A stretch of DNA of 60,900 nucleotides from the NCBI GenBank assembly GCA_035312025.1, contig DATGCJ010000060.1:1-60900 (forward strand). The letters are read 5' to 3'. Source of the DNA: Halanaerobiales bacterium (GTDB taxonomy: Bacteria > Bacillota > Halanaerobiia > Halanaerobiales > M55B127). The position numbers and the translations under genes are program-made. Numbering within the stretch: the stretch's first letter is position 1; each line of letters starts with the position of its first letter. This document shows, piece by piece, positions 6,228 to 27,949 of the stretch. The notes under the pieces were generated by a model, which saw only the letters and a program-made list of their open reading frames with translations, did no database searches and was not told where the DNA came from.

Positions 6228-7127
6228 TTAGTCATTATCTTTTTTATATGGTATTCTTTCATAAGGTTCGAACTTACTTTTTGCTTCCTTAGTTAACCCG
6301 TCATATACACTTAGATTTCTATCTTCTAGATGGTCAAAGATCATAGGTGATTTAACCCCATAAGAAACATGTTTTATGGGATCACTGTCTAAACGGGCGG
6401 AGACAATTTCTTCTGTTCCCCGAGCTAAGGCTATTTTTTCAGCAATAGGACTAATAATCATGCTGTGACCGAAATAATAATTTTCTTCTGCATCTGCTCC
6501 AACTGAATTAACACCGATCATGTAGATATGATTATCATAAGCACGAGCTTTATTGGTCATTTCCCAAATATCATAACTTCTCAGTAAGGCAGAAGGCCTA
6601 ACAATAACTTCAGCCCCTTTGATAGCTAAGATTCTGCTTAATTCGGGGAAGTCTCCCTCATAACAAATTGTAATTCCAATATTGGCCAGGTCAGTTTCAA
6701 AAACCTCTACTTTGTTACCTGGTGTTGTCCAGCCTCCCCCCTGTAATCTTTCGGAGGGGAAAAGGTGTGTTTTGGAATATTTTCCAATTATATTACCATC
6801 AGGACCAATCAAGACCGCACTATTATAAACAACTCCCCGCTTTTCACCTCGTTCATAGGTAGGTAAAACAACAAATACACTATTTTTTTTGGCTGCTTTT
6901 GCGATTGGACCTGTTAATTTTCCGGGTACATAATCAATTTTATCCCACAGTTCTTCTGGACTACAGCCAGGAGCAAATCCGGTTGTTATCGACTCGGGAA
7001 AAACAATTAGTTCAGCATTATGCTCATCAACTGCCTTATTTAACCAGGTTATTATCTTATTTATATTATATTCAATATTATCAGGTTTAACACTAATCTG
7101 AACCCCTGCAACAACAAAATCTTTCAA
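6228..7127 (-). CDS. carbon-nitrogen hydrolase (nitrilase superfamily) amidase/decarbamoylase
   Basis: The E-K-C triad context is present: FPE near residue 45, YSKTHLF, and ICYEGDFPE. Length is 299 aa. TTG start with SD GGGGGTG 5 nt upstream. Confidence 0.85.
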   Translation of the reverse strand: MKDFVVAGVQISVKPDNIEYNINKIITWLNKAVDEHNAELIVFPESITTGFAPGCSPEELWDKIDYVPGKLTGPIAKAAKKNSVFVVLPTYERGEKRGVVYNSAVLIGPDGNIIGKYSKTHLFPSERLQGGGWTTPGNKVEVFETDLANIGITICYEGDFPELSRILAIKGAEVIVRPSALLRSYDIWEMTNKARAYDNHIYMIGVNSVGADAEENYYFGHSMIISPIAEKIALARGTEEIVSARLDSDPIKHVSYGVKSPMIFDHLEDRNLSVYDGLTKEAKSKFEPYERIPYKKDND

Positions 7128-10909: not shown

Positions 10910-10911
10910 TA

Positions 10912-11382
10912 TTAGTTGCCCCCCTTCTTCTCAGCTGCACGTTTTACCGCATTTCTAATAGAGTAATATCCTGTACAGCGACAAATATTACCTGATAAAG
11001 CAATATCAATATCTTCATCAGAAGGATTAGGATTTCTATCTAATAATGCCTTTGTAGACATAACCATACCTGGTGTACAAAAACCACATTGAATAGCATT
11101 CTCTTCAATAAAAGCTTTTTGTATATCGCTGATCTCTTCACCGATCGACTGTCCTTCAATAGTTTCTATTTCAGAACCATCCGCTTCTACAGATAAAATT
11201 AAACAACTTGTTACAGCCTTACCATCCATGATAACAGTACAGGCGCCACATTCTCCTTCTCCACAACCTTCTTTTGCACCAGTAAAATTTAATTTTTTTC
11301 TTAGGGTATCAAGAAGAATTTCATTTTCCTGTACTTCTAATTCAAAAATTCTTCCATTTACTGTTAGATTAATGGTTTTCAT
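10912..11382 (-). CDS. (2Fe-2S)-binding small subunit of the Mo hydroxylase
   Basis: Has both cluster motifs, CGEGECGACTV and CGFCTPG...CRCTGY. Length is 156 aa. Confidence 0.9.
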   Translation of the reverse strand: MKTINLTVNGRIFELEVQENEILLDTLRKKLNFTGAKEGCGEGECGACTVIMDGKAVTSCLILSVEADGSEIETIEGQSIGEEISDIQKAFIEENAIQCGFCTPGMVMSTKALLDRNPNPSDEDIDIALSGNICRCTGYYSIRNAVKRAAEKKGGN

Positions 11383-12236
11383 TATTTATCACCTGCTTCC
11401 CATAAACTGGAAAGAATTCTTTTTGTATAAACTTCAGATAGCTTTTTTCTATATTTTTTTGTACTTCTTACATCGTCAATCGGATTAATGTTATCTAAAA
11501 TTCTGTTAACAATTTTCCCCTGCTTTTCTTCAAAAGAGCCATCTGCAAATAAAAGATCACTAACATCTACATAAACTGGGGTTGGAGCTACTGCGCCTAA
11601 AGCAAATGCAAGATATTCTTCTGCTTTAGATAGATACCCTGCTACCCCTATTCCACTTAAATCAGGACCTTTAGTTCTTCTTTTTTTGAGATAAGCTCCC
11701 TTGCCATCTTCAGCATGTTTTTGTACTATTAAGCCTTTGACTACTTCTTTATCTTTTAATACATTGCTTTTTACTCCTGTCGCAAACTCATCTAAAGGAA
11801 CCTCTCTACTTCCCTCTTTACTTTCAATTAAAACGGTAGTCTTTAGTACTAATAAGCTGGGAAACATATCTGCACCCGGGGAAGTAGTACATAAGTTGCC
11901 AACAACTGTTGCTCTATTACGAACCTGGTGAGCTGCAACTTCTAAAGCTGCATCTGCTAATATTTTATAATCATTATTAACCAGTTCACTGTCGATTATT
12001 TCATTACAAGTTACAGTTCCACCTATAAATAAACCAGCATCTCTTTCTTCTATTTTACCAAAATCTTTAATACCTTTAACATCAATAATATAATCAGGTT
12101 TTCTTGTCTTATGTTTCATATCAACAAAAAGGTCTGTTCCACCCGCTAACAAGGCGGATTCGCCCTCATTATTATCTAAAATTTCAAATAATTCTTCTAA
12201 TTTTGTTGGTTTAAAATAATCAAATTTATTTAACAT
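11382..12236 (-). CDS. FAD-binding medium subunit of the Mo hydroxylase (CoxM/XdhB-like)
   Basis: 284 aa, with LLAGGTDL and the ATVGGNL FAD-binding motifs. The stop/start is coupled to the 2Fe-2S subunit. Confidence 0.85.
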   Translation of the reverse strand: MLNKFDYFKPTKLEELFEILDNNEGESALLAGGTDLFVDMKHKTRKPDYIIDVKGIKDFGKIEERDAGLFIGGTVTCNEIIDSELVNNDYKILADAALEVAAHQVRNRATVVGNLCTTSPGADMFPSLLVLKTTVLIESKEGSREVPLDEFATGVKSNVLKDKEVVKGLIVQKHAEDGKGAYLKKRRTKGPDLSGIGVAGYLSKAEEYLAFALGAVAPTPVYVDVSDLLFADGSFEEKQGKIVNRILDNINPIDDVRSTKKYRKKLSEVYTKRILSSLWEAGDK

Positions 12237-12267
12237 TAATATTTTTCACCTCCAACGAATTCCAAAA

Positions 12268-13200
12268 CTACTTGGTAATTCTGGTACCAGCATTACCATG
12301 AACGGCTTCTAACACTTTTTCTATAGAAGTTATTATAGCCATTTCTCCGCCGCTTTCTACAAAATCACAAGCAGCCTGTACTTTTGGTTTCATACTTCCT
12401 TCACCAAAATGACCTTTTTCAATATGTTCTTCCATTTCATTAACTTTAATTTCTCCGATTGCTTCTTCGTCTTTTTTACCATAATTAATATATGCATTTG
12501 AAACATCAGTTAAAACTAAGAAAATATCCGAATCTATTTCTTCAGCTAAAAGACAGCCTGCTCTATCTTTATCAATTACTGCCTCTACACCATGTATCTT
12601 ATTATCTTTATTAACAACTGGAATTCCTCCCCCACCTGATGCAATAACAATCTCTCCATTTCTTACAAGATCATTAATTATGGGAGCTTCAATAATTTTC
12701 TCAGGGATGGGTGAAGGTACAACTTTTCTCCAGCCTCTGCCACTGTCTTCAATCCAATCTTCTCCCTTTTCTTTTACCATCTTATCAGCATGTTCTTTGT
12801 CATAAAAAGGTCCAACAGGTTTGGTCGGGTTATCAAAAGCACTATCTTCTTTATTAACTAAAACTTGAGTTACTACAGTTGCTACATTTCTATCTAAACC
12901 TAATTCAGCAAAAACATTATGCAAACTATTTTGAAGCATATAACCGATAAATCCTTGAGTCTGAGAGCCACAAACATCAAGAGGCATAGCTGGAACAGAA
13001 TCTTTTGCCTTATCCTGTTGAATTAAAATATTTCCCACTTGAGGACCATTACCATGTGTTATTACTACTTCATGACCATCATTAACTAGTTGACCGATCT
13101 GTTTACTGGTAGATAAAACATTTTCAAACTGTTCTTTTGCAGTTCCATCCTGACCTGGTTGTAATATTGCATTCCCACCTAATGCGATAGTTAATTTCAT
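12268..13200 (-). CDS. arcC: carbamate kinase
   Basis: The N-terminus reads IALGGNAIL...VITHGNGPQVGN. Length is 310 aa and the sequence is collinear with the ArcC family. Confidence 0.9.
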   Translation of the reverse strand: MKLTIALGGNAILQPGQDGTAKEQFENVLSTSKQIGQLVNDGHEVVITHGNGPQVGNILIQQDKAKDSVPAMPLDVCGSQTQGFIGYMLQNSLHNVFAELGLDRNVATVVTQVLVNKEDSAFDNPTKPVGPFYDKEHADKMVKEKGEDWIEDSGRGWRKVVPSPIPEKIIEAPIINDLVRNGEIVIASGGGGIPVVNKDNKIHGVEAVIDKDRAGCLLAEEIDSDIFLVLTDVSNAYINYGKKDEEAIGEIKVNEMEEHIEKGHFGEGSMKPKVQAACDFVESGGEMAIITSIEKVLEAVHGNAGTRITK

Positions 13201-13227: not shown

Positions 13228-13267
13228 TTAAAAGTAAAGAAAGGAACCCTGTGGTAAGCAGGATTCC
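13228..13267 (-). terminator. terminator-like hairpin between the cyclase gene and carbamate kinase
   Basis: The minus strand reads GGAATCCTG-CTTACCA-CAGGGTTCC, 9 bp with one G-U pair. That pair would be a C-A mismatch on the plus strand. It is followed by TTTCTTTACTTTT. Confidence 0.4.
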
Positions 13268-13283
13268 ATCTTATTACTTATAT

Positions 13284-14042
13284 TTACTCTTCTTCTACAA
13301 AAGCAACTGCGCGTCCAATACTAGATTCTAAATCTACACCTTTCCATGGGAAGAATCCTATTTTACATCTCTTATTAAGAATTTTATCAATTTCTCCCCC
13401 AATGTTTTCAGCGTGGATAATTCCTTCTGGGAATAACTTAGTGTGCATTAGCTGTCTGCTTTCTGGATGAGAGAATACTTCATCTAATGGTGCACCAAGG
13501 TGTTCTTCGGCTTCTTTTGCCAGATCAGGTCTTAGCTTTTTACAAACTGTATTCATCGGGTGATCAGCAGAACCACAGTCAACACCGATCCATTTCAACT
13601 TTTTCTCCATTGCCCAATGAGCAAATTCCATGTTTGGACCAGGGTGTTTCATAAAGTATCTTTCTTCATCTGCCTCAGGTTGATCCCAACCATATTTATG
13701 GTAACCAGTATTGATTATTAAGACATCGCCTTCTTTTACTTCTACTCTTTCTTCAATCATTTCTGATGTATATATATCATAGTCTTCTACTGCATCGCTT
13801 AGATCTACTATTACTCCCTCACCAAATAGATCTTCTAATGGAATGCTGGCCATATCTCTTCCAGCAGTCCAGAAGTGTCTTTCACCATCTAAATGAGTAC
13901 CAATATGGTTACTAGTTTTAATAATTTGTCCGTTTACTCTTTCAGTTGAAAGACGCTTGAAGTATTTTAGTTCTAAAGGTTCATATGTTGGCCATGGGGG
14001 TGTAGAAACACCTATTTTTTGAGTTAAGTCATATAATTTCAT
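13284..14042 (-). CDS. cyclase-family metal-dependent amidohydrolase (kynurenine formamidase/isatin hydrolase-like)
   Basis: Has the HxGTHxD motif (NHIGTHLDGERH), then TGY...GVD and a HAENI-type C-terminal motif. Length is 252 aa. Confidence 0.8.
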   Translation of the reverse strand: MKLYDLTQKIGVSTPPWPTYEPLELKYFKRLSTERVNGQIIKTSNHIGTHLDGERHFWTAGRDMASIPLEDLFGEGVIVDLSDAVEDYDIYTSEMIEERVEVKEGDVLIINTGYHKYGWDQPEADEERYFMKHPGPNMEFAHWAMEKKLKWIGVDCGSADHPMNTVCKKLRPDLAKEAEEHLGAPLDEVFSHPESRQLMHTKLFPEGIIHAENIGGEIDKILNKRCKIGFFPWKGVDLESSIGRAVAFVEEE

Positions 14043-14057: not shown

Positions 14058-15482
14058 TTATTTAATATATTTTTGGGCAAAAGCCCTTATTGCCTTTTTG
14101 AAACACTCTTCAGGTGGGTCTACTAAACCTGCTCCGATTTGTCCAATTCCTGGTTCTTTATGAGCAATACCGGTATTAATTGCCGGTAAGATTCCGGTTT
14201 CAATTATCTTACGGAGGTCGATACCGGTCGGAGTTCCTCTAAAGTTAAGAGGTGGTATAGTAAAGTTCTCATTTTCAGTAACTGTTATTTCATACATATC
14301 TCTTGTAAATTTAATAGAATCAGAAACAGTACCTCCTACAAATCCTACTATGGCTGGGGCAGCTGCCATTGCAAAACCACCTACAGCAGCAGTTTCAGAA
14401 ATTGTAGAATCTCCTAAGTCCCGGCAGGCATCTTCTTCAGTATAACCTGGGAAATAAAGTCCATCAACTTTTTGGGCTTCACCGACAAACCAATCATCAC
14501 CTAAGCCGCTTACTCTGATACCAAAGTGTACACCATTTCTAGCCATTGCTGTTAGGACTGTACTATATTCTATTCCATGTGCAGCATCCATAGTCGCTTT
14601 GGAGGCAGGCATTGATAAGTTTAAATAGAAATGTTCATTTCCAGACATAAATTCTATAATTTCTTTTATTGTTTCGTTATCATAATCAGTTTGTAAGAGG
14701 TAGGGTGTAATTTCTCTTATAAACAAGGAGGTGCCTGCTTTATTTCTATTATGAACTTCATCACCCATGTGAAGGGCTTGAGAAGTTATATTTTTTAAGT
14801 TTATACCATCTTCAGTTTTGCGCAAAGCCTCTCCTATGGCTGGACCTAACACTTTTTCCATCCATTTTAATTTTTCGATAACTTCCGGTCCATTGGCACC
14901 AAATCTTAATACTTTTCCTAATCCTTCATTAAGTGTTGTATAGGCTGTGTTACCATAAGTCTTATTTTCAACTACCCAAACAGGCATGGAGGGTGAAACA
15001 ATACCTGTCATAGGGCCTACAGCATTATGGTGGTGAGCAGGATCAAAAGTAACTTCACCAGCATCTAACATCGCCCGGGCAGATTCTTCATCTTCAGCCC
15101 AACCTTCATAAATACAGGCACCAATTGCTGCACCCTGCATTGGTCCAGACATATCTTCCCATTTTTCAGGAGGGGCAGCATGTAAAATCATTTTACCTTC
15201 AAAATTTGGTAAAACATCTTTAGCAGTTTGAACATCAACCACTACAGGTTCACTTTTTTGCATCCGTTCAACAGCTTCTTCATTCGCTTTTTCAATTTTA
15301 TCACTTATTTTTTCTATATCATCTAACAATGCAGCCATTTCTTTATCTCCACCCGCGGGTGGCTTCCAATCAACCTGGACTGCATCATAACCTTCATCTT
15401 TTAAATTCTCAGAAAAAGATTCTAATCCAATATTTATTACTTTCAAATCTTCTTTAAATAAATCTTCTAGTTTCTTACCCAT
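14058..15482 (-). CDS. DUF1116 protein (YlbE-like)
   Basis: 474 aa, immediately downstream of fdrA, as in the E. coli fdrA-ylbE-ylbF arrangement. The assignment rests on size, context and remembered family resemblance, not on a search. Confidence 0.7.
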   Translation of the reverse strand: MGKKLEDLFKEDLKVINIGLESFSENLKDEGYDAVQVDWKPPAGGDKEMAALLDDIEKISDKIEKANEEAVERMQKSEPVVVDVQTAKDVLPNFEGKMILHAAPPEKWEDMSGPMQGAAIGACIYEGWAEDEESARAMLDAGEVTFDPAHHHNAVGPMTGIVSPSMPVWVVENKTYGNTAYTTLNEGLGKVLRFGANGPEVIEKLKWMEKVLGPAIGEALRKTEDGINLKNITSQALHMGDEVHNRNKAGTSLFIREITPYLLQTDYDNETIKEIIEFMSGNEHFYLNLSMPASKATMDAAHGIEYSTVLTAMARNGVHFGIRVSGLGDDWFVGEAQKVDGLYFPGYTEEDACRDLGDSTISETAAVGGFAMAAAPAIVGFVGGTVSDSIKFTRDMYEITVTENENFTIPPLNFRGTPTGIDLRKIIETGILPAINTGIAHKEPGIGQIGAGLVDPPEECFKKAIRAFAQKYIK

Positions 15483-15496: not shown

Positions 15497-17059
15497 TTAT
15501 TTAAGATCACTTAATATTTTATTCACTACGCGCACAGCCTGAACATTTGTGGGGAGTACCTTAGCTCCAACCTCACGTAATTTTTCTTCTTGTGCCTGAA
15601 GATTTTGAGGATCTTTATCAGTGCCGCATACAGAAGCGATAACTGATAGATAGCCGCCGCGTTCAGTGACTTTTTCTTTAGCTTCTTTAATAACTTTTGC
15701 TGCTTCTCCAGCTGGGTCCAGATGTGAACCATAGCCTAATACAATATCTAAAAGAATAACTGCTGTTTCTTTATCATCTGCTTCTTTTATTAGTCTCTCA
15801 TTTCTTAATGAGGGTTCAATCATAGGATGTGGTTTACCTCTTGTAAATTCATCTTCACCTAAATCAATAACTGTATCTTTTATACTTTTGAGATCTTCCT
15901 TTAATCCCAATTCTTCTTTTAATGGAATATTAGAATAAATATCTCCAGATTTCTCAGATAATAGTATAACTGCCTCACTGCATAAAGTTCCACCAGTATA
16001 TAATCCTCTAAGATATTTTTGTTCTGAAGACATTTTATTAACTTCTTCTTTGGCAATTTCAGCTATTTCTTCTTTTGTTAAACCAGCAGCAGAAACTTTA
16101 TCTTCACCTTTAACAAAGGCAGCTGCTTTTAAAGCTGCGTCCTCTAGGGTGTCTGCCCAAATAGCATCAGTACCTTCTATAACAGAAGGGTCACCACCTA
16201 AAAAGTTAACAATGACCGGTTTAGATAATTTCTTTACTTCATCCATTATTTTTTTACTTACTTCTTCAGCAGGGGGTTTAGATATAAGCACGATTACCTC
16301 AGTCTCATCATCTTTATCTAAAGCTTTCATATCTTTTATCATTTCAACACCTTTTACCTTAAACTTAAGGTCGCGTCCACCTGTACCTATAACCTGAGAT
16401 AATCCAACCCCCTGTCTATCAATTAAACTTGATACAGCTTGAGCGCCAGTACCTGAGGCAGCTACAATACCTACTGGGCCTTTATTTACAACATTAGCAA
16501 AAGCTAATGGTGCTCCATTGATTATAGCTGTACCACAGTCTGGTCCCATAAGTAAGAGATCTTTCTTACTAGCTATTTTCTTAAGTTCAATCTCATCTTC
16601 AACAGGTACATTATCACTAAACAGCATTACGTGCAGACCTTTTTTCAAAGCCTTCCGTGCTTCACGTGCTGCATATTCACCGGGTACTGAAATTATTACT
16701 AAGTTTGCATCCGGTTGAACATCTAATGCACCATCTAAAGAACCAGGCTTGTACTCTTTTTCTTTATCTGAAGAATCTTTTTGTTCTGCTAACATTTCAT
16801 TAGTTTTTTCAATTGCTTTGTTTAATACTTCTTCTTCACCATCTATCACAATTACCAAATCATTTGGCTTTGCAGATTCGGCTTCAGGTACTAAAAGTCC
16901 AGCGGACTCTAAAATACCTTTATTAGCTTCAGTACCCATTACTATTGTTGCTTCCTTAACTCCATTGATAGCCTTAACATCTTTGGAAATTGACATTAAG
17001 GTAACAGAATCAAAGTAGGTACCTTCTTTAATTAAAGCTTTTTTTGCCATCCTTAACAA
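15497..17059 (-). CDS. fdrA: FdrA family protein (succinyl-CoA synthetase alpha-like fold)
   Basis: The N-terminus KEGTYFDSVTLMSISKDV...VMGTEANK closely parallels E. coli FdrA (KKGCFQDSVSLM...MMGTPANK). There is a central CoA-ligase-like region, GPDCGTAIING. Length is 520 aa. Confidence 0.85.
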   Translation of the reverse strand: MLRMAKKALIKEGTYFDSVTLMSISKDVKAINGVKEATIVMGTEANKGILESAGLLVPEAESAKPNDLVIVIDGEEEVLNKAIEKTNEMLAEQKDSSDKEKEYKPGSLDGALDVQPDANLVIISVPGEYAAREARKALKKGLHVMLFSDNVPVEDEIELKKIASKKDLLLMGPDCGTAIINGAPLAFANVVNKGPVGIVAASGTGAQAVSSLIDRQGVGLSQVIGTGGRDLKFKVKGVEMIKDMKALDKDDETEVIVLISKPPAEEVSKKIMDEVKKLSKPVIVNFLGGDPSVIEGTDAIWADTLEDAALKAAAFVKGEDKVSAAGLTKEEIAEIAKEEVNKMSSEQKYLRGLYTGGTLCSEAVILLSEKSGDIYSNIPLKEELGLKEDLKSIKDTVIDLGEDEFTRGKPHPMIEPSLRNERLIKEADDKETAVILLDIVLGYGSHLDPAGEAAKVIKEAKEKVTERGGYLSVIASVCGTDKDPQNLQAQEEKLREVGAKVLPTNVQAVRVVNKILSDLK

Positions 17060-17267
17060 CTCCTTTATGATTTATCATTTTTTATAACTCACTAGTTCAA
17101 TGTAAAAATCATCTCTTATTTAAATTACTAAATCATATGCCTAAATAGTTATACCTAATAAAATATCGAATAAAGATTTTTTGGTACTAATCAATAACTT
17201 CTTGCAATATATTTAGAATTCCTTTGTAATATTTTACAAATATTTAATATTTCTTTTGTATGAAATC

Positions 17268-18398
17268 TTAAGCAAATATTGACATCATCACACCAGCTGC
17301 CACAGCAGATCCGATCACTCCAGCCACATTAGGACCCATGGCATGCATCAGTAAATAGTTGGAAGTATCTGCTTTTTGACCTTCTTTTTGTACAACCCGA
17401 GCTGCCATTGGTACAGCCGATACTCCAGCCGCCCCAATCATGGGATTGATCTTATCGGAAGAAAAATTATTCATAAGTTTACCCAGTAAAACTCCTGTCA
17501 TGGTACCGAAAGCAAATGCTAAAACACCTAAAATTATAATTTGTATAGTGTCTAACTTTAAAAATTTATCGGCAGAGGCACTTGCCCCGACAGCTACTCC
17601 TAATAATATCGTTACAATATTTATCAAAGAGTTTTGAGCAGTCTCACTTAAGCGATCTACAACACCACTTTCTTTAAATAAATTACCAAGCATTAACATA
17701 CCAATTAATGGTGCCGCATCTGGTAATAATAATAGCACCACAATTGTGACTAAAATAGGAAATAATATTTTTTCTGACTTTGAAACCGGTCTCAGCTGCT
17801 GCATCTTTATTTTTCTTTCCTTTTTACTGGTCAATGCTCTAATTATTGGTGGCTGAATAACTGGAACTAATGCCATATAAGAATAGGCTGCAATTGCGAT
17901 TGCCCCTAAATACTCTGGAGCTAACTGTCCTGATAAATAGATAGCAGTCGGTCCATCGGCTCCCCCGATTATGCCAATCGGAGCAGCTTGTTGGCCTGTA
18001 AAGCCCAAAAGAATTGCTCCTAAAAATGTTATGAAAATTCCAAACTGAGCGGCTGCCCCTAATAATAAGCTTTTAGGGTTGGCTATTAAAGGTCCGAAAT
18101 CTGTCATCGCACCGATTCCCATAAAAATCAAAGGGGGGAAAATACCAAGTGCATTTCCGGTATAGAAATATCTAAATAAGCCGGCGGGTTTCCCGTCTGC
18201 AGCATGGATCATTAAATTTGTCATCGGTAAATTCACTAAAAGCATACCAAAAGCTATTGGTACCAATAACAAAGGTTCATACTTTTTTACGATACCAAGA
18301 TATAAAAGGACTAAAGATACTATTATCATAATGATCTGAGGGATATCCAGAGCCATTATACCGGTTTTTTGGAAAAATTCTATAAAAACCTGTACCAA
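17268..18398 (-). CDS. sodium ion-translocating decarboxylase beta subunit (OadB/MmdB/GcdB family)
   Basis: A 376 aa polytopic membrane protein with conserved GIMALD, MTDFGPL and GAADGPT-type motifs. TTG start with SD TAGGAGGT 7 nt upstream. Confidence 0.9.
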
Positions 18399-18425
18399 TT
18401 TTCTTACCTCCTAACATATTGTGAC

Positions 18426-18842
18426 TTATTCTATAACTACTAATACTTCTCCCGCTTCTACTTTTTGGTTCTCATCTACATTTACCTCACTAACCTGGCC
18501 AGAAGTAGGGGCATATACTTCGTTTTCCATCTTCATCGCTTCCAGTACTAAAAGTAAGTCTCCTTTTGTTACTTCTTCACCTTGCTTAACCTTTACCTCT
18601 AAGACTGTCCCTGTCATAGGGGCTTCTACTGTGCCGGCTCCCCTACTGGAACTAGCAGATTTTCTTGGCTTTTTCTTGGCTTTTGAACTGGTCTCTGCGG
18701 TAGATGTTGAAGTTTTAGGTTGTGGTGCATGTTCTCTGTTTTGAGTTTCGGATTGAACTACTGACTGTTGGTCAGTTTCGACTTCTTCTACTTCAACTTC
18801 ATATAATTCATCATTAACTTTTACTTTAAATTTTTTAGTCAT
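18426..18842 (-). CDS. biotin carboxyl carrier subunit of the decarboxylase
   Basis: A C-terminal biotinyl domain carries EAMKMENE, preceded by a Ser/Thr/Lys-rich linker. ATGA overlap with the upstream gene. Confidence 0.85.
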
Positions 18843-19249
18843 AATAACTCTCCTTTATTATTTGCTGATATTCCGCCGCGGGTGACTCTACCCCAGATCG
18901 GCACATCGTCTTTAACTCTTGTAATCTTTTTTATCTTAAATTTTTTCTGCTTACTTGAACTTTCTATACTCATGATGGCCGCCATAATTGCTGCCACTTC
19001 TTTTTTATGGTCTATATCAGGTTCTAAATCTGCCACTTTAGGCTCAACTTTTTTTGCATCTTCTTTAAAGTCTATCTTTTCAGAATAAAAGATCTTCTTT
19101 AAAATATTTACCACTATCATCAAAAGAAAGAGAATCAAAAATACTATTAACATACCTAAAATAGCTACCTGTAGACCCGAAATTAATTTTTGATTTAAAG
19201 TCATTGACTGTACTAAATTGGGGTCTCTTAATAACTCGAGAGGATTCAC
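18839..19249 (-). CDS. OadG/MmdD-like small membrane-anchored decarboxylase subunit
   Basis: A single N-terminal TM helix ([20 protein letters not shown]) is followed by a charged tail. The gene lies between the carboxyltransferase and the biotin carrier. GTG start with SD AAGGAGG 7 nt upstream. Confidence 0.55.
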
Positions 19250-19269
19250 ATTAATGCCTCCTTTTTATC

Positions 19270-20814
19270 CTATAAAGGAATATTACCGTGTTTTTTATTG
19301 GGCTGATTTTCCCTTTTACCTATTACAGATTCTAAGGCCATGATAATCCTTGGTCTTGTATTACGGGGGTCTATTACATCATCTATATAGCCTTCGGCTG
19401 CTGCCCGGTAAGGATTTGCAAAGCTTTCTCTGTACTCTTCGATTTTCTCCTGCCTTTTTTCTTCCGGATTTTCGGCCTTTTTTATCTCTTTTCTAAAAAT
19501 TATATTGGCAGCACCCTGAGGCCCCATAACAGCAATTTCTGCATTTGGCCATGCAAATACATAGTCAGCACCAAGGTGTCTACTACTCATCGCTATATAA
19601 GCTCCACCATAGGCTTTTCTTAAAATAACAGTTATCATGGGTACGGTCGCTTCTGAATAAGCATATAATAATTTTGCGCCGTGTCTAATAACTCCACCGT
19701 ACTCCTGTTCTACTCCCGGTAGATAGCCAGGCACATCTGTGAAGGTAACAATCGGAATATTAAATGAATCACAGAACCTGATAAAACGAGCAGCTTTATC
19801 GGAAGAATCTATATCTAGAGTACCTGCTTTAACTCGGGGTTGATTTGCAATCACTCCCACTGAACGTCCATTTAAACGGGCAAAACCCACTACGATATTT
19901 TTGGCATAATACTTATGAACTTCAAAGAAATCTTGGTTATCAACGACTTTTTTTATTACATCTCTAATATCATAGGCTTTATTAGGATTAATCGGCACAA
20001 TATCTTTTAACTTATCTTCCACACGTTCCGGGGAATCGTTAGTTTCAACTACAGGGGCTCCTTCTAAATTGTTATTAGGAATAAATGAAATTAACCTTTT
20101 TATCTGTTCAAAACTATGCTCTTCATTATCAGCTAAAAAGTGTGCTACTCCACTTACTTCGTTATGAGTGGAACCTCCCCCTAGTTCTTCAGCACTAACT
20201 TCTTCTCCCGTTACTGATTTTACTACCTGTGGGCCTGTAATAAACATTTTAGAGGTGTGGTCAACCATAAAGACAAAGTCTGTAATGGCGGGAGAGTAGA
20301 CTGCTCCACCTGCACATGGTCCTAAAATTACAGATATCTGTGGGATTACACCAGAAATATCAGTATTCCTTTTAAAGATTTCTCCGTAACCTTTCAGGGC
20401 GTTAACACCTTCTTGGATTCTCGCTCCACCCGAATCTAAAAGTGCAATAAATGGTGAACCAGATTTTTGTGCTAAATCCATAATTCTACATATCTTTTTG
20501 GCGTGCATCTCTCCTAAAGAACCGCCCATTGTGGTAAAATCCTGAGCAAATAAATATACAGATCTTCCATTGATCGTTCCTTGGCCGGTTATCACACCAT
20601 CAGCCGGAATCTCTCTTTCGTCCATTCCTAAATCTTGTGAATGATGCTCTACAAACATGCCTATCTCTTGAAAGCTACCTTCATCCAACAATCTGTCGAT
20701 TCTTTCGCGGGCGGTTAACTTACCTTTGCTATGTTGTTTTTCAATCCTTTTTTCTCCACCGCCTTTAGAAACTTCTCCTCTTTTTTTGTGTAGTTCTTTA
20801 ATTTTATCTTTCAA
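19270..20814 (-). CDS. acyl-CoA carboxyltransferase subunit (methylmalonyl-/malonyl-CoA decarboxylase alpha, PccB-like)
   Basis: 514 aa and collinear with PccB/MmdA (GGGEKRIEKQHSKGKLTARERI, GGARIQEG, PCAGGAVYSPA, AYGGAY). TTG start with SD AGGGAGGG. Confidence 0.9.
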   Translation of the reverse strand: MKDKIKELHKKRGEVSKGGGEKRIEKQHSKGKLTARERIDRLLDEGSFQEIGMFVEHHSQDLGMDEREIPADGVITGQGTINGRSVYLFAQDFTTMGGSLGEMHAKKICRIMDLAQKSGSPFIALLDSGGARIQEGVNALKGYGEIFKRNTDISGVIPQISVILGPCAGGAVYSPAITDFVFMVDHTSKMFITGPQVVKSVTGEEVSAEELGGGSTHNEVSGVAHFLADNEEHSFEQIKRLISFIPNNNLEGAPVVETNDSPERVEDKLKDIVPINPNKAYDIRDVIKKVVDNQDFFEVHKYYAKNIVVGFARLNGRSVGVIANQPRVKAGTLDIDSSDKAARFIRFCDSFNIPIVTFTDVPGYLPGVEQEYGGVIRHGAKLLYAYSEATVPMITVILRKAYGGAYIAMSSRHLGADYVFAWPNAEIAVMGPQGAANIIFRKEIKKAENPEEKRQEKIEEYRESFANPYRAAAEGYIDDVIDPRNTRPRIIMALESVIGKRENQPNKKHGNIPL

Positions 20815-20853
20815 CTGGGTCCCTCCCTTGATATATCTATAGTTATATTGTAT

Positions 20854-20882
20854 GTTACCAATATAATATTTTCAATAATTAA
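20854..20882 (-). promoter_or_regulatory. sigma-A-type promoter upstream of the decarboxylase operon
   Basis: The minus strand has TTGAAA (20882-20877), a 17-nt spacer and TACAAT (20859-20854). An inverted repeat TATATTG-N8-CAATATA (20851-20872) overlaps the spacer and -10. Confidence 0.45.
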
Positions 20883-20935
20883 AAACAGTATACCTTTGTT
20901 TATTTTAACAATAATTTCATTTTTTTATTGAAACC

Positions 20936-21778
20936 TTACATAATTAAGCCAAAATATAATCCTGATAGCATATCTAGACCTGAACTATTACCCATTTCTA
21001 TTAACTTTTCAGTATATTTTCTATAATATTTTTCCCCATTTTCTATATTTTTGTATATATCAACTAATCTTTTATTATATCTATGATTAATTGCTCCTTT
21101 TAAATGAAGTGCACTAACGCGATTAGTTTTATCAAATAGCTCATCTGTTTCCATTTCATTAATCACATTCAATTTATCTTCTGCTAATTTTGCTTCTATG
21201 ACTGATAAATATCCCACTATAAAGTCATCTCCTGTTGGTGTAAGGCCAATTCCCAACCCCAACAAATTATTGATAGAAATCTTTTTTTCTAAGATATCTT
21301 TTAACTTATTATAAAATTCTCGCTGTAAAGTTGATAACTTAAATTCTTGTATGTTATTTATTATATTAGTAAACTTTAAGATTGTATGGTCTAAACTGCC
21401 TGAACGGTTGGTATTTTTAATAACCTTCTCAGTCCATTCTATTAAAAGATCCCTATCTACAAATGAACAATCCTTTATTTTGCCACTAAAAATGTTTTTA
21501 TTATTATAATTAAATATATTTTTATTATAAATTATTTGTTCGTTGTTTATTTTTATTTTTGTTTCTTCTTCTAAGCTATTTTTGATATTGTTGAATATAT
21601 AATTTGGTAACTTCACGTGGTAAGGAGCTAGGGTTACCTTACTGTCAGTTATTGCATAGCCTTTATTATTTTTTGTTTTTATATTTATAACATTATTAAA
21701 TTTGCTAATTATATTACCATTTAAGCTATAATTTTCTTTTACTAAATCACCTTCAATAATATAATCAAACATTTTCAT
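20936..21778 (-). CDS. DUF2877-like protein (YlbF-like)
   Basis: 280 aa, with internal GLGIGLTPTGDDF and C-terminal GNSSGLDMLSG motifs. Size and co-occurrence with fdrA/DUF1116/carbamate kinase fit the E. coli ylbF position. This is a family call from memory and needs an HMM check. Confidence 0.5.
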   Translation of the reverse strand: MKMFDYIIEGDLVKENYSLNGNIISKFNNVINIKTKNNKGYAITDSKVTLAPYHVKLPNYIFNNIKNSLEEETKIKINNEQIIYNKNIFNYNNKNIFSGKIKDCSFVDRDLLIEWTEKVIKNTNRSGSLDHTILKFTNIINNIQEFKLSTLQREFYNKLKDILEKKISINNLLGLGIGLTPTGDDFIVGYLSVIEAKLAEDKLNVINEMETDELFDKTNRVSALHLKGAINHRYNKRLVDIYKNIENGEKYYRKYTEKLIEMGNSSGLDMLSGLYFGLIM

Positions 21779-23444
21779 TACCTAATATATCAGTAAAGTT
21801 TAGCATTTTCAAAGCAATTTCAAGATTTAATTTATCGTCAGGATTATCAAGGCTTAAACCTGTAATTTTTTCTATTCTCTTTAATCTATAATGAACTGTA
21901 TTATAATGAACATATATTTTTTTGGCTACATTGGTAAGATTTCCATTTTCTTCGAAAAAAGCCTTTAATGTTTTTAAAAGTTCTGTATTATGGGCTTTAT
22001 CATATTTTAGTAAAGGAATTAAGGAATTTTTTAAAAACCTATTCTTTTCTTCCCTATCAACTTTATACAGTAATTTATAGACTCCTAAATCATCAAAGAA
22101 ATATACCTGATCTTTTTTATTTAATTTATTGGCTACATTTATGGTCCTTTTAGCTTGGGAATAACTTTCATGTAAATTAATTATTTCTTTTTTATAATTC
22201 CCTACTCCTACAGTTACTAAGTCTCTATCCTTTTGATCAAATACATTCAATACTTTTTGAGAAAATTCTTTGATACTCTTTTTCTCTTTGCCAGGATATA
22301 AAGCTACTAGATAAGTACCTAAATCTCCAATAATTACCTCTTCATCAATTATTCTATTAGCTGATTCTAAATAACTTTTTTGGATATTTTCGTTTAAAAT
22401 CCCCTTCTTTTTAAAATGCTTTGAAATTAACTCTTTTAATTCAAATACCACCACTGAAAAACCTTTATCTAACTCCATATCCATATTTTGACCGCGATTT
22501 AATATAGTCTTTTTGTTATTAATTTTCCCTTTTAAAATATCATAAAGTAACTCGTTTTTATATTTTAACTCCACATTTGCTATAGAGCGTTTATTTAAAA
22601 TATCAAGAGCAGCTATTGTACTAGCCCACTTTAATGTTGATATATCTAATTCATTTATACTCTTGCCATATTCCCAGGCAAATAGATAGCCAAAATGACT
22701 ATTAGGAGTGTTAATAGGAATCTTCATTAGATTAATTTCCTTACCATGCAAAGTAACATCAATTTTCTTACAGTGGTAATTAAAGACCTCTTCTTTAGAT
22801 TCTTTTTGATCATTAATAGATATGCTGTCAGTGAGATCTTTTTTAGTAACTTCATTGTTAAAATCATCTGGAATAGAATACGAGATAATAGCTCCATTGG
22901 AATCGGTAATTAAAACAGGATTTTTTATCATATCAACTAAAACAGTGGATAATCTATCAAGTCCATTTTCATAAAGTACTGTATTGGTAAGTACTTCATG
23001 GATATTTAAAGTTTTTTCTAAAAATCTGGTCTGAACATTAAGTATCTCACTTAAAATAGGGTTGATAAATACTGAATAGGAATAATCATAAGGAATTTTA
23101 AGTAAAGGAAAGTTATGTAGCTCAGCTTGTTCAATCATAAATGAAGGTATCTCATTAATATACCTACCTGGTTTTATACCTAATCCAGCTAAGTTTTTTT
23201 GAGCTAAATTAGGTATTAGATTTTTTAAGGCTTTTTCATCGTCTTTAATTGAATACAGTGTGGTGAATAAAAGTTCTCCTTCTTTAACCCAGTCTAAAAT
23301 ATCAGGAACTTCCATAATGTTGACCTTTGTAATATGACGTTCTAAACCATCTTTACCCGCTAAAATTTCAACTTCTTTCATCTTTTCTAGCTTTAAAGCA
23401 TCTGCCATAGTTATTCCAATTAACTCTTTCATCAATTTCACCAT
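21765..23444 (-). CDS. PucR-family transcriptional regulator
   Basis: Has an N-terminal PurC-like domain (ILAGKDGLERHITKVNIMEVPDILDWVKEGELLFTT) and a C-terminal PucR-type HTH (NLTNVAKKIYVHYNTVHYRLKRIEKITG). The start could be an internal ATG. Confidence 0.85.
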   Translation of the reverse strand: MVKLMKELIGITMADALKLEKMKEVEILAGKDGLERHITKVNIMEVPDILDWVKEGELLFTTLYSIKDDEKALKNLIPNLAQKNLAGLGIKPGRYINEIPSFMIEQAELHNFPLLKIPYDYSYSVFINPILSEILNVQTRFLEKTLNIHEVLTNTVLYENGLDRLSTVLVDMIKNPVLITDSNGAIISYSIPDDFNNEVTKKDLTDSISINDQKESKEEVFNYHCKKIDVTLHGKEINLMKIPINTPNSHFGYLFAWEYGKSINELDISTLKWASTIAALDILNKRSIANVELKYKNELLYDILKGKINNKKTILNRGQNMDMELDKGFSVVVFELKELISKHFKKKGILNENIQKSYLESANRIIDEEVIIGDLGTYLVALYPGKEKKSIKEFSQKVLNVFDQKDRDLVTVGVGNYKKEIINLHESYSQAKRTINVANKLNKKDQVYFFDDLGVYKLLYKVDREEKNRFLKNSLIPLLKYDKAHNTELLKTLKAFFEENGNLTNVAKKIYVHYNTVHYRLKRIEKITGLSLDNPDDKLNLEIALKMLNFTDILGNENV

Positions 23445-23555: not shown

Positions 23556-23590
23556 TCAATAAAAAAAGGCAACCCATAAGGTTGCCTTTA
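23556..23590 (-). terminator. rho-independent terminator downstream of the permease gene
   Basis: A stem AAGGCAACC/GGTTGCCTT (23566-23574 and 23580-23588) with a 5-nt loop is followed on the minus strand by a run of 7 T. Confidence 0.75.
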
Positions 23591-23654: not shown

Positions 23655-24902
23655 TTACATTTGGGCAAATTCTTCTTCTCCATCGGGAAGAATTAGATTC
23701 AAGACAACACCGACAAGTGCTGCCAGAGCTAAACTAGAAAATTCTATTCTTCCGAGCTGGAGAGTTGCTCCACCAAGACCAAGTACAATAACTGTTGCAA
23801 CGATAACTAGGTTTCTTGAAATCTTAAGATCAGTTTGACTTTCTACTAAAGTCCTAATACCAATAGTAGCAATCATACCGTATAAGAGGAATGAAATACC
23901 ACCAATAACTGGATTAGGGATGGTTTCAATTAGTCCACCGAACTTCGGAACAATAGCCATTGCAATTGCAAAGGTAGCACCAATTCTCATAACAACTGGA
24001 TCATATACTTTAGTAATAGCTAAGACACCGGTGTTTTCTCCATATGTAGTGTTTGGAGGTCCACCAAAGATACCCGCAAGTGAAGTTGCCATACCATCAC
24101 CAAACATAGTTCTATGAATACCAGGATCTGTAACTAATTCTCTTCCCTTACCAATTGTTTCACTAATAGCTAAAATATCTCCAACGTGCTCAACCATTGA
24201 TACTAGTGCAACGGGAGCTATAATGGTAATAGCTGTAATATTAACTGCTGGAACTGTAAATTCAGGAAGACCAATCCAGGCATTATTAATTACTGGTGAA
24301 AAGTCAACCATGCCTACAATTACCGCCACGATATAACCAGTTACCAAGCCAACAATGATAGGAACAAGTTTAAAAAATCCTTTAGCAAAAATAGCAGCAA
24401 TAACCGCTCCAGCTAAAGCTGCAATAGCCACAACAACATTAAGTGCGCTTCCCGTTGACATATCAATTGCAGTTGGAGCTAAGATTGTACCGATAAGAAT
24501 AATAACTGGACCAGTAACAACTGGTGGGAATATTTTCTTAATTAAACTAGGTCCTACTTTATAAATGATAAAGGCAACAATAGCATAAATAAGACCAGCT
24601 GCTATAATACCACCCTGTGCAGCTGGAATGCCACCATGCTGTTCAATAACTAATGATATAGGTGCAATAAATGCAAATGAAGAACCTAGATAGGCAGGTA
24701 CCTTTTTCTTTGTAATGAAGTGAAATAGCCAGGTACCAACACCTGCAGTAAATAGTGCAACACTTACATGTAGCCCTGTTAAAATTGGTACTAAAATGGT
24801 AGCTCCGAACATCGCTAATGCGTGCTGTAGGCCAAGAAAGATCGCTTGCGATTTGGGAAGGTTACTAACATCCCTCACAGCTTGTTCTTCTCGTGATTCC
24901 AT
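23655..24902 (-). CDS. uraA: NCS2-family nucleobase permease, UraA/PyrP (uracil permease)-like
   Basis: Long collinear identity blocks with E. coli UraA: GLQHALAMFGATILVP, KVPAYLGSSFAFIAP, EHVGD, GGPPNTTYGENTGVLAITKVY and GGISFLLYGMIATIGIRTLVES. Length is 415 aa. Confidence 0.85.
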   Translation of the reverse strand: MESREEQAVRDVSNLPKSQAIFLGLQHALAMFGATILVPILTGLHVSVALFTAGVGTWLFHFITKKKVPAYLGSSFAFIAPISLVIEQHGGIPAAQGGIIAAGLIYAIVAFIIYKVGPSLIKKIFPPVVTGPVIILIGTILAPTAIDMSTGSALNVVVAIAALAGAVIAAIFAKGFFKLVPIIVGLVTGYIVAVIVGMVDFSPVINNAWIGLPEFTVPAVNITAITIIAPVALVSMVEHVGDILAISETIGKGRELVTDPGIHRTMFGDGMATSLAGIFGGPPNTTYGENTGVLAITKVYDPVVMRIGATFAIAMAIVPKFGGLIETIPNPVIGGISFLLYGMIATIGIRTLVESQTDLKISRNLVIVATVIVLGLGGATLQLGRIEFSSLALAALVGVVLNLILPDGEEEFAQM

Positions 24903-25190
24903 TAATTATTCCTCCTTTAAAAATAAGATATGATATTAATCTGTATTTAATATGATATTAATTTATACTCTCTACTCACCTCCTATTAATGGTTTAAAAA
25001 GATTATTATGGTAATTATTTCAAATACTACCCCTATATATTAATTCTCACTATATTCCTTATTCTCCTTTTGTAATATTAAACAATTTTACCTAACATTT
25101 TTCGTTATATTTTCTAATGTATTTATTATAATAATCTAATATAATGATAATGATTTAAAAACACGGGAAATTATAGAGGAGGATATTATA

Positions 25191-25673
25191 TTGGAAGGTA
25201 TCAAATTATTAAAATCTAGAAGATCCATTCGAGAATTCAAAGAACAAAAAGTAGAAAAAGAAAAACTGGAAAAAATAGTAGAAACTGCTCGTTATGCCCC
25301 GACTGCCAATAATGTGCAGCCCTGGCAGTTCATAATTGTGACAGATGAAAATAAGATAGAAACTTTAGAAAAATATATTGGTCAAGGCAAAGAATTTCCA
25401 GCCTGTATAGCAGTTTTTACAAAAGATGTAAAACATCATCTTGAAGATGGTTCTAATGCAACTACTTATATTTTATTAGCAGCAGAAGAATTAAAATTGG
25501 GCACATGCTGGATTGGAAGTTACGGAAAACCTTATTCCTCTGAAATTAAAGAACTTTTAAATGTACCAGAAAATTACAAGTTAATTTCTATGGTAACAGT
25601 CGGTTATCCAGATGAAAATCCACATCCTGATAAAAAAGAATTGGATGATGTAATTAATTGGGAAAAATTTTAA
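25191..25673 (+). CDS. nitroreductase-family flavoprotein
   Basis: The N-terminus RRSIREFKEQKV...ARYAPTANNVQPWQFIIV is typical of the family. Length is 160 aa. TTG start with SD GAGGAGGA 7 nt upstream. Confidence 0.8.
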   Translation: MEGIKLLKSRRSIREFKEQKVEKEKLEKIVETARYAPTANNVQPWQFIIVTDENKIETLEKYIGQGKEFPACIAVFTKDVKHHLEDGSNATTYILLAAEELKLGTCWIGSYGKPYSSEIKELLNVPENYKLISMVTVGYPDENPHPDKKELDDVINWEKF

Positions 25674-26982: not shown

Positions 26983-27001
26983 AACAAAGTTACCTCCTGA
27001 T

Positions 27002-27931: not shown

Positions 27932-27949
27932 TGTAGCTCACTCTCCTAT

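Follow-up and report, generated by a model that had tools for sequence, protein, structure and literature searches.

A putative Na+-translocating (methyl)malonyl-CoA decarboxylase operon within a conserved nucleobase-catabolic gene cluster of Halanaerobiales

Results

Organization of the decarboxylase operon

The stretch of DNA analysed here (in the following, the window) comprises 60,900 nucleotides of contig DATGCJ010000060.1 from an uncultured Halanaerobiales bacterium (GenBank assembly GCA_035312025.1); it has a G+C content of about 34%, and nearly all of its genes lie on the minus strand. The sequencing runs in which it was found are all DNA metagenomes. It contains an island of catabolic genes in which a four-gene operon for a putative Na+-translocating biotin decarboxylase (mmd operon) is embedded. 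Along the direction of transcription, the island consists of the genes for an NCS2 permease, PucR and AllH, the mmd operon, the genes for AllF, AllG and a cyclase-family hydrolase (PF04199; hereafter the cyclase), and those for carbamate kinase, a three-subunit molybdenum (Mo) hydroxylase, a family III coenzyme A (CoA) transferase, a CN hydrolase and a 269-aa Asp23-like protein.

An earlier note on this sequence had described a complete membrane decarboxylase between fdrA (allF, 15497-17059) and the DUF2877 gene (allH, 20936-21778), consisting of a 514-aa carboxyltransferase, an OadG-like anchor, a biotin carrier with an AMKM motif and an OadB-like pump. Profile matches to Pfam and TIGR models confirm all four genes at these positions on the minus strand, in the order A-D-C-B. 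The alpha subunit gene mmdA (19270..20814, 514 aa) matches Carboxyl_trans (PF01039) with 695.6 bits and the mmdA model TIGR01117 with 901.1 bits; the latter match is full length yet stays under the strict subfamily cutoff of 998.8 bits. It is followed by the gene for an MmdD/OadG-like membrane anchor (delta; 18839..19249, 136 aa; OAD_gamma PF04277, 53.1 bits; TIGR01195, 48.7 bits with a cutoff of 36.05), in whose translation a single N-terminal hydrophobic helix is visible. The start of mmdC, encoding the biotin carboxyl carrier (gamma; 18426..18842, 138 aa), overlaps the end of mmdD by 4 nt; the carrier contains the EAMKME motif within the sequence LEAMKMENE and scores 72.1 bits against Biotin_lipoyl (PF00364) and 99.6 bits, below the cutoff of 200, against the MmdC model NF047903. 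The operon ends with the gene for an MmdB/OadB-type carboxybiotin decarboxylase (beta; 17268..18398, 376 aa; OAD_beta PF03977, 544.3 bits; TIGR01109, 536 bits with a cutoff of 190.6). When aligned to Salmonella OadB (6IVA), this subunit keeps the equivalents of D203, Y229, N373 and S382, residues of the Na+ site in Klebsiella pneumoniae and Salmonella whose functional importance was reportedly established by mutagenesis in the Dimroth laboratory.

Concerning the type of the enzyme, the best PDB matches of the carboxyltransferase are 1VRG (768 bits), the 12S transcarboxylase 1ON3 (679 bits) and PccB (about 640 bits). GcdA chains are missing among its 44 PDB matches at E<=1e-40, the top ones of which are all MmdA, PccB or 12S, in line with the note's assignment to the methylmalonyl/malonyl-CoA type rather than to GcdA; identity to MmdA of other Firmicutes genera amounts to 67-72%. 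An OadA-type alpha subunit, i.e., a TIM-barrel carboxyltransferase fused to a biotin domain, is absent from the operon; the match of the carrier to OadA models is confined to their C-terminal biotin domain (TIGR01108, 70.7 bits versus a cutoff of 756.5). The beta subunit reaches 491 bits in the oadB equivalog models versus cutoffs of about 820, and 176.2 bits in the Mad beta-subunit model TIGR03136 versus a cutoff of 596.9. No MadA or acyl carrier protein (ACP) genes occur in the island, and no small MmdE gene was seen. Judged by its sequence, the operon encodes a Na+-translocating, biotin-dependent (methyl)malonyl-CoA decarboxylase with the four canonical subunits, MmdA-D-C-B, of the ordinary Mmd type and not of the Gcd, Oad or Mad type. 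Decarboxylation of (methyl)malonyl-CoA coupled to Na+ export is predicted from this membership, all sequence features of which are present except a TIGR01117 score above the cutoff.

A comparison of substrate-pocket residues, suggested in the earlier note, did not separate malonyl-CoA from methylmalonyl-CoA use: in the motif GGAYIAMS, the window MmdA carries Ile at the position inferred to be equivalent to D422 of PccB, and this position is Ile or Leu in all MmdA compared, cluster-linked or not. Purified Mmd of Veillonella parvula and Propionigenium modestum is reported, from work of Hilpert, Dimroth and Bott, to decarboxylate malonyl-CoA as well. The likely main substrate of the pump is malonyl-CoA. 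Oxalyl-CoA was also considered and ruled out on chemical grounds, since the carboxyltransferase requires a thioester-stabilised alpha-carbanion, which is impossible for oxalyl-CoA.

Conservation of the linkage between pump and cluster

The close AllH family is limited to about ten Halanaerobiales species represented by metagenome-assembled genomes (MAGs). The order permease-PucR-AllH-mmdA-anchor-carrier-oadB-(242-aa gene)-AllF-AllG-cyclase was found in every inspected Halanaerobiales relative, even where AllH is only 43% identical; AllH evolves fast, its identity being 43-64% in relatives whose MmdA is 84-92% identical. In locus L077 (GCA_016278485.1; MmdA 77%, AllH 27% identical; L numbers denote the loci compared), the block including the pump stands in a different neighbourhood, together with a Bmp-type ABC transporter and a gene for a methyl-accepting chemotaxis protein (MCP).

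The linkage is not confined to these relatives. JGI metagenomes were scanned with an alignment of the cyclase, and for the 80 loci kept, gene content was recorded within 10 kb of the cyclase gene: AllG was found in 35 of them, AllF in 34, a Mo subunit in 27, the permease in 14, the CoA-transferase in 13, the CN hydrolase in 11, oadB in eight and mmdA in seven. Diverged mmd operons, whose MmdA is 55-58% identical to that of the window, occur in the same type of cyclase/AllFG/Mo-hydroxylase cluster in unrelated lineages with 49-61% G+C (L123, L130, L139, L148 and L156). In L130, L139 and L148 (49% G+C), they form one tight operon permease-XDH(x3)-mmdA-anchor-carrier-oadB-cyclase, XDH standing for subunits of the xanthine dehydrogenase family, and in L156 (60% G+C) the order is mmdA-anchor-carrier-oadB-AllF-AllG-cyclase. 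In a neighbor-joining tree of full-length MmdA, the Halanaerobiales copies group with the other Firmicutes MmdA compared, and L123, L130 and L148 form a clade outside this group; the link between pump and cluster is thus either ancient or was assembled more than once. In L123, a metagenome contig with 61% G+C, a gene for an ADP-forming acetyl-CoA synthetase (10965-12905; CoA_binding_2, Succ_CoA_lig, ATP-grasp_5) lies directly downstream of mmdA-carrier-oadB-cyclase, which fits acetyl-CoA as pathway product.

The cultured and fully sequenced Anoxybacter fermentans DY22613 (CP016379.1) possesses, at about 956.7-969 kb, the arrangement mmdADCB-PucR-AllH-AllF-AllG-CoAT3-cyclase-CN hydrolase-nitroreductase, CoAT3 being the family III CoA-transferase. 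Its MmdA is about 69% identical to that of the window (over the 212 aa present in the locus), and its CoA-transferase, cyclase and CN hydrolase are 67-71% identical to their counterparts.

The nearest mmd operons outside the island are those of Halanaerobiaceae bacterium Z-7014 (L078) and Halarsenatibacter silvermanii (L159). There, mmd stands in another nucleobase-type cluster, without AllFGH, which contains XDH, three amidohydrolases, a DHO_dh/4Fe-4S protein and an NCS2 permease. The genes flanking a second mmd operon of H. silvermanii (L160, FNGO01000014.1) encode two Fe-alcohol dehydrogenases, an aldehyde:ferredoxin oxidoreductase and a CoA-transferase that shares 50% identity with that of the window, which suggests that a module of Mmd and CoAT3 is reused for another malonate-forming pathway.

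Genes for methylmalonyl-CoA mutase or epimerase were found neither in the window nor in any mmd locus inspected, and in no locus examined was the same operon syntenic in relatives lacking the rest of the island. That the embedding in a nucleobase cluster described in the earlier note is no accident is supported by the Halanaerobiales relatives, the second site in L077, the diverged mmd lineages and Anoxybacter; the comparison of gene orders makes it very probable that the pump is an integral part of the pathway of this cluster and not a passenger.

An operator-like motif shared by three units

The earlier note had ascribed to the operon a promoter of its own, TTGAAA-17-TACAAT, at 20854-20882. 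A motif scan found this promoter-like sequence upstream of mmdA, about 7 bases away from that position, at 20847..20875 on the minus strand (read as 20875-20847), but on its own it does not stand out from chance: 90 promoter-like matches in 20 kb of this AT-rich DNA compare with 79.7 +/- 9.0 in shuffled sequences. Its -35 hexamer is kept in relatives, whereas the -10 hexamer is not clearly kept. The only terminator-like hairpins of the island follow the permease gene (23565..23589, minus strand; an 11-bp stem, then a T-run) and the cyclase gene (13243..13267, minus strand). Since promoter-like matches occur at chance level, promoter and terminator scans were dropped as proof of an independent mmd transcription unit, and conservation together with a shared operator-like motif was used instead.

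This motif, an inverted repeat TTGT-N8-ACAAA(A)GG, was first found as a conserved block when the allH-mmdA spacers of relatives were aligned, and the pattern TTGTN{8,9}ACAAARG was then counted over the whole window. It has exactly three matches, versus 0.17 expected, and none of 100 shuffles reaches three; all of them are on the coding strand, in island spacers upstream of the permease gene, mmdA and allF, respectively. Site 1 (TTGTTAAAATAAACAAAGG; 20893..20911, minus strand) precedes the -35-like hexamer of mmdA by about 18 nt and is kept 96-102 nt upstream of mmdA in L001, L003, L004, L007, L008 and L077. Site 2 (TTGTAAAATATTACAAAGG; 17221..17239, minus strand) is situated in the oadB-allF spacer; relatives possess a slightly degenerate form, TTAT...(T/C)ACAAAGG, in the same place, upstream of their extra 242-aa gene. 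Site 3 (TTGTTTAATATTACAAAAG; 25067..25085, minus strand) is found about 165-183 nt upstream of the permease start, and in all relatives checked it is kept 180-231 nt upstream.

A motif common to the upstream regions of the permease gene, mmdA and allF points to one regulator for transporter, pump and carbamoyltransferase. The candidate binder is presumably the PucR-family transcriptional regulator encoded in the island (21765..23444, minus strand; PF07905, PF17853, PF13556), which is present in all Halanaerobiales versions of the cluster and in Anoxybacter. On the evidence of the shared TTGT-N8-ACAAAGG site, induction of the permease, mmd and allF units is probably coordinated by this PucR-type regulator.

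Flanking catabolic genes

The NCS2/NAT permease (23655..24902, minus strand) is of the uracil type, scoring higher against the NCBIfam uracil permease model (396 bits) than against RutG (310 bits) and PbuX (222 bits). Among structures, it matches Escherichia coli UraA with 302-307 bits and UapA with 68 bits; it keeps the equivalents of UraA E241 and G289-E290, and its signature reads ENTGVLAITK. The first position of the NAT signature motif, as defined in PMC5972032, is Gln in the xanthine/urate carrier UapA (Q408; PMC5972032). UraA carries E290 there, and Glu occupies this position in all cluster-linked permeases, including a second subfamily (30-35% identical) in other phyla.

The three subunits of an AllFGH-like carbamoyltransferase are not contiguous, allH being set apart from allF by the intervening mmd operon. 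AllH (DUF2877; 20936..21778, minus strand) matches PF11392 with 77.5 bits, and its gene overlaps the end of pucR; the AllF/FdrA-like subunit (15497..17059, minus strand) has CoA_binding and Ligase_CoA domains and scores 525 bits in NF004760 (cutoff 433); the AllG-like subunit (DUF1116; 14058..15482, minus strand) matches PF06545 with 326.7 bits. AllF and AllG of the window are only 46-50% identical to the enterobacterial copies, and a neighbor-joining tree of AllG separates the cyclase-linked sequences from the enterobacterial clade (E. coli, allantoin type), a position compatible with a different ureide substrate. The carbamate kinase gene (12268..13200, minus strand) exceeds the cutoff of TIGR00746 (433 versus 358 bits).

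Between AllG and carbamate kinase lies the gene for the cyclase (13284..14042, minus strand; PF04199, 120 bits), a metal hydrolase that we propose to be the amidohydrolase responsible for ring opening. Of all markers of the cluster it is conserved best: identity across phyla is 60-64%, homologues at E<=1e-60 number 2841, and metagenomes from sediments, salt lakes and the subsurface contain more than 580 matches; it matches kynurenine formamidase structures with only 27 bits. The Mo hydroxylase of the XDH family (8585..12236, minus strand; Pfam) consists of an FAD subunit (11382-12236), a 2Fe-2S subunit (10912-11382) and a Mo subunit (8585-10909). All NCBIfam equivalogs stay below their cutoffs, and among solved structures 4-hydroxybenzoyl-CoA reductase comes closest (339 bits), XDH of bovine origin (235 bits) and of Rhodobacter capsulatus (186 bits) scoring lower; by these scores, it is not an orthodox xanthine dehydrogenase.

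Two further genes were assigned putative roles in the formation of an acyl-CoA. The family III CoA-transferase (7139..8299, minus strand; PF02515), a proposed acetyl-CoA:malonate CoA-transferase, has E. coli YfdE (341 bits) and SUGCT (299 bits) as nearest structures and also matches mesaconate and glutarate models; it is 67% identical to the copy in the Anoxybacter cluster and 50% identical to the one directly after oadB in L160. The CN hydrolase (6228..7127, minus strand; PF00795), a nitrilase-superfamily amidase and proposed malonamate amidase, is nearest to the structures of PH0642 and of Nit2/Nit3 proteins, which are known as omega-amidases acting on dicarboxylate mono-amides. Copies with 53-69% identity adjoin the cyclase in other lineages.

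Whether the last gene (5147..5956, minus strand) belongs to the island is uncertain; it encodes the 269-aa protein, whose N-terminus weakly resembles a P-loop and whose C-terminus is Asp23-like. In the XDH clusters of Z-7014 and Halarsenatibacter, the gene directly after oadB has a product with 46-48% identity to this protein and precedes MobA-like, YqeC, XdhC and MoCF genes, so that the protein may be a maturation or accessory factor of the Mo hydroxylase. A role as pump subunit was considered as well and is unlikely, the gene lying 11 kb from oadB in the window and preceding Mo-cofactor maturation genes elsewhere.

At the permease end of the island, a nitroreductase-family gene (25191..25673, plus strand; PF00881) is divergently oriented. 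The same gene borders the cluster in all relatives, in the other chromosomal context of L077 and in Anoxybacter; its product weakly matches the RutE malonic semialdehyde reductase model (41.9 bits).

No allantoin-pathway genes were found in the window; specifically, the island lacks allantoinase, allantoate amidohydrolase, ureidoglycolate dehydrogenase and oxalyl-CoA decarboxylase. The island is positioned between fabF on one side and fabG on the other, within a housekeeping stretch priA ... recG ... pta-ackA-plsX-fab ... rnc, and thus splits a fatty-acid synthesis cluster into plsX, fabK, fabH, fabD and fabF (25732-31045) and fabG (4388-5131). The short-chain dehydrogenase/reductase (SDR) gene at 4388-5131 had been a candidate island member and was ruled out, being FabG above the trusted cutoff. 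Acetyl-CoA carboxylase genes were not seen in the window.

Alternative modules in related clusters

All Halanaerobiales relatives examined possess, between oadB and allF, a gene for a 242-aa GNAT-like protein (Acetyltransf_1, 20.1 bits, just under the cutoff), which is also the most recurrent unannotated gene of the cyclase clusters (19 loci). No remnant of it was found in the 208-bp oadB-allF spacer of the window (17060-17267), which exhibits at this place a clean gap of about 0.93 kb compared with L001 (14530-15574) and L079. The GNAT-like gene and the CoA-transferase/amidase pair appear to be mutually exclusive, with L119 (a more distant CoA-transferase, 43% identity) as single exception. 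This looks like a swap of alternative modules for conversion of the ring-opened product to an acyl-CoA, such that the amidase/transferase route is only one variant. In L003 (15615-16269; a MAG from Salar de Ascotan), extra short open reading frames, apparently duplicated remnants, lie between the 242-aa gene and allF; one has the N-terminal HMA-like domain of AllF, and another corresponds to a fragment of a protein of the 242-aa family.

In cyclase/AllFG clusters without mmd, the GNAT-like gene is followed by genes for a thiolase-like protein (about 394 aa) and a DUF35/ChsH2-like protein with zinc ribbon and OB-fold (about 114 aa); this arrangement was found in L097, L108, L109, L114, L119, L134, L137, L145 and L151. 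The thiolase/DUF35 pair may be an alternative back-end for the same intermediate.

Discussion

A proposed anaerobic oxidative pyrimidine pathway

The genes identified, their conserved linkage, the shared motif and the type of the transporter can be combined into a pathway for which we infer all intermediates as well as the regulation and, for each enzyme, its specificity and direction. Uracil (or thymine) would be imported by the UraA-type permease and oxidized at C6 by the XDH-family Mo hydroxylase to barbiturate (or 5-methylbarbiturate), whose ring the cyclase-family metal hydrolase would open to ureidomalonate, an N-acylurea analogous to oxalurate. Phosphorolysis by the AllFGH-like enzyme would yield carbamoyl phosphate and malonamate; the former would give ATP via carbamate kinase, while the latter would be deamidated to malonate by the CN hydrolase. 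The YfdE-like CoA-transferase would form malonyl-CoA at the expense of acetyl-CoA. MmdA would then move the carboxyl group to the biotin carrier, and the OadB-type subunit would decarboxylate carboxybiotin and export Na+, such that acetyl-CoA is regenerated; thymine would lead via methylmalonyl-CoA to propionyl-CoA. The net reaction, uracil + 4 H2O -> acetate + 2 CO2 + 2 NH3 + 2[H], balances, and it would supply one ATP by substrate-level phosphorylation plus a Na+ gradient.

That the pump might act on malonate or methylmalonate left over from a pyrimidine had been put forward in the earlier note; the UraA-like, Glu-type permease, the YfdE-like CoA-transferase, the omega-amidase-like CN hydrolase and the shared operator-like motif all speak in its favour. 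Only a pyrimidine ring would give an N-acylurea and a C3 dicarboxylate by one ring hydroxylation and one ring hydrolysis, and an MmdA with 67-72% identity to standard MmdA limits the substrate to thioesters similar to malonyl- or methylmalonyl-CoA. On balance, we consider it probable that mmd conserves energy in the final step of a pathway in which pyrimidines are oxidized anaerobically, from uracil or thymine via barbiturate to (methyl)malonyl-CoA.

Several observations weigh against this interpretation. Neither the Mo hydroxylase nor the cyclase has a characterised close relative, so that the steps from uracil to barbiturate and the ring opening rest on chemical logic only. Known barbiturases have a different fold (AtzD family), and no gene of the island matches a barbiturase of the AtzD/cyanuric-acid-hydrolase fold or an amidase-signature ureidomalonase. 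The nearest relatives, L079 and L080, possess the GNAT-like 242-aa gene instead of CoA-transferase and amidase; the way in which the ring-opened product becomes an acyl-CoA is therefore not uniform and may differ from the one proposed. Furthermore, mmd is present in only about one fifth of the long cyclase loci, others having the thiolase/DUF35 pair, and MmdA exhibits no signature that separates malonyl-CoA from methylmalonyl-CoA use. Finally, the operator-like motif was defined only after inspection of the alignment, though the count test covered the whole window.

Other explanations

Part of these observations would also agree with the pump serving a pathway with another substrate or other intermediates, e.g., another N-heterocycle, barbiturate-like compounds imported directly, or CoA-bound ureides handled by the AllFGH-like, GNAT-like and thiolase/DUF35 proteins, with a carboxylated acyl-CoA still being the substrate of Mmd. 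In its favour, the closest matches of the Mo hydroxylase are 4-hydroxybenzoyl-CoA reductase, 6-hydroxypseudooxynicotine dehydrogenase and quinoline oxidoreductase and not XDH, AllF contains domains for CoA binding and CoA ligation, clusters that lack CoA-transferase and amidase repeatedly possess the GNAT-like gene and the thiolase/DUF35 pair, and a second type of nucleobase cluster (L078, L159) contains mmd without AllFGH. Against it stand the uracil-type Glu signature in both subfamilies of cluster-linked permeases as well as the arguments from ring chemistry and from MmdA identity given above, and we regard such a pathway as rather unlikely, though less so than the explanations that follow. 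A degradation of purines or ureides via oxalurate in the manner of E. coli, leading over oxamate and oxalate to oxalyl-CoA by the YfdE-like transferase and leaving the pump uninvolved, could appeal to the function of AllFGH as oxamic transcarbamylase in that species (PMC11326118) and to the acetyl-CoA:oxalate transferase YfdE as nearest structure of the CoA-transferase. It is, however, very improbable given that genes for allantoinase, allantoate amidohydrolase, ureidoglycolate dehydrogenase and oxalyl-CoA decarboxylase are missing from the island, the permease is of the uracil and not the xanthine/urate type, the cyclase-linked AllG falls outside the E. coli-type clade and the recurrent linkage with mmd would be left unexplained.

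The remaining two explanations separate the pump from the catabolic island. The ordinary MmdA and MmdB sequences and the promoter-like site of its own could be taken to indicate a methylmalonyl-CoA decarboxylase of succinate-to-propionate fermentation that came to lie in the island by chance or hitch-hiking; the absence of mutase and epimerase genes from the window and the inspected mmd loci, the recurrence of the linkage with diverged mmd in unrelated lineages and at a second chromosomal site, and the operator-like motif common to mmdA, the permease gene and allF make this equally hard to believe as the oxalurate route. Alternatively, the complex might run in reverse as a Na+-gradient-driven acetyl-CoA carboxylase that feeds malonyl-CoA into the adjacent fatty-acid synthesis, an idea suggested by the position of the island between fabF and fabG, by the lack of visible acc genes in the window and by the in vitro reversibility of Na+ decarboxylases. 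Such reversal is not known as a physiological mode, and the fab neighbourhood is lineage-specific, whereas L077, Anoxybacter and the metagenome clusters keep the link to mmd without fab genes; this explanation is extremely unlikely.

Comparison with known systems

The operon shares with Mmd of V. parvula and P. modestum (MmdABCDE, EC 7.2.4.3) the MmdA-type carboxyltransferase, the OadG-like anchor, the AMKM carrier and the OadB-type pump. Known Mmd is tied to the fermentation of succinate or lactate to propionate (PMC8085960), whereas the pump of the window is located in, and apparently co-regulated with, a nucleobase-catabolic cluster, with neither mutase and epimerase genes near the operon nor a small MmdE gene in evidence. 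The proposed back-end resembles malonate fermentation of the Sporomusa malonica type and Mad of Malonomonas rubra (EC 7.2.4.4) in that malonate would be activated by CoA or acyl transfer from the acetyl product and biotin-dependent decarboxylation would be coupled to Na+ export; unlike in Mad, MadA/ACP genes are absent, OadB fails TIGR03136, and malonate would arise intracellularly from a pyrimidine ring.

The oxidative pathway of aerobic pyrimidine degradation in Rhodococcus and Mycobacterium proceeds via uracil/thymine dehydrogenase, barbiturase and ureidomalonase. It has been known since the 1950s only in aerobes, where it gives urea and malonate and conserves no energy. The proposed steps from uracil via barbiturate to ureidomalonate and malonate as C3 product are the same; the ureido group, however, would leave as carbamoyl phosphate, giving ATP, and not as urea, an AtzD-fold barbiturase and an amidase-signature ureidomalonase are absent, malonate would be processed via malonyl-CoA with Na+ export, and the hosts are strict anaerobes.

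AllFGH was recently identified as oxamic transcarbamylase, which converts oxalurate, an N-acylurea, and phosphate to oxamate and carbamoyl phosphate (PMC11326118). As in the oxalurate branch of E. coli, homologues of AllF, AllG and AllH are accompanied by an adjacent carbamate kinase, and ATP would be derived from an N-acylurea via carbamoyl phosphate (PMC11326118, PMC9843812). Unlike in E. coli, they are linked to a Mo hydroxylase, the cyclase, a uracil-type permease and a Na+ pump and not to allantoin genes, and the predicted substrate is ureidomalonate, versus oxalurate. The reductive degradation of uric acid described in a 2025 preprint involves different genes (YgeW, SsnA and others). In the full-text literature (with subscription journals outside the scope of the search), neither an anaerobic pathway involving barbiturate, ureidomalonate or uracil dehydrogenase nor a link between Mmd and pyrimidines was found.

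Significance

The novelty lies in the wiring, i.e., in a Na+-pumping decarboxylase placed within nucleobase catabolism, the complex itself being a member of the known Mmd family. Reviews name no more than four settings of Na+-pumping biotin decarboxylases (oxaloacetate, methylmalonyl-CoA, glutaconyl-CoA and malonate) and few origins of the carbamoyl phosphate used to make ATP (PMC8085960). If the proposal is true, the cluster would constitute a fifth physiological setting for these decarboxylases and ureidomalonate a second natural substrate class for AllFGH enzymes. In its widest form, the proposal concerns an undescribed and widespread anaerobic oxidative fermentation of uracil or thymine, carried out by a Mo hydroxylase together with a 'barbiturase' of the cyclase fold and a ureidomalonate phosphorylase of the AllFGH type. 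Energy would be conserved at two points, as ATP derived from carbamoyl phosphate and as a Na+ gradient built up when malonyl-CoA is decarboxylated, and the back-ends appear to be interchangeable: amidase plus CoA-transferase or the GNAT-like protein, and the Mmd pump or the thiolase/DUF35 pair. We consider the chances that this whole scheme holds to be evenly balanced.

As Anoxybacter fermentans is in culture, has a complete genome and possesses the full set including the pump, the hypothesis is directly testable. Because the cyclase has so many homologues and metagenome matches, a correct assignment would annotate many genes now listed as 'cyclase family', 'FdrA', 'DUF1116' or 'DUF2877', and with a pump operating in nucleobase catabolism, fermenters would have a new means of drawing energy from the debris of nucleic acids.

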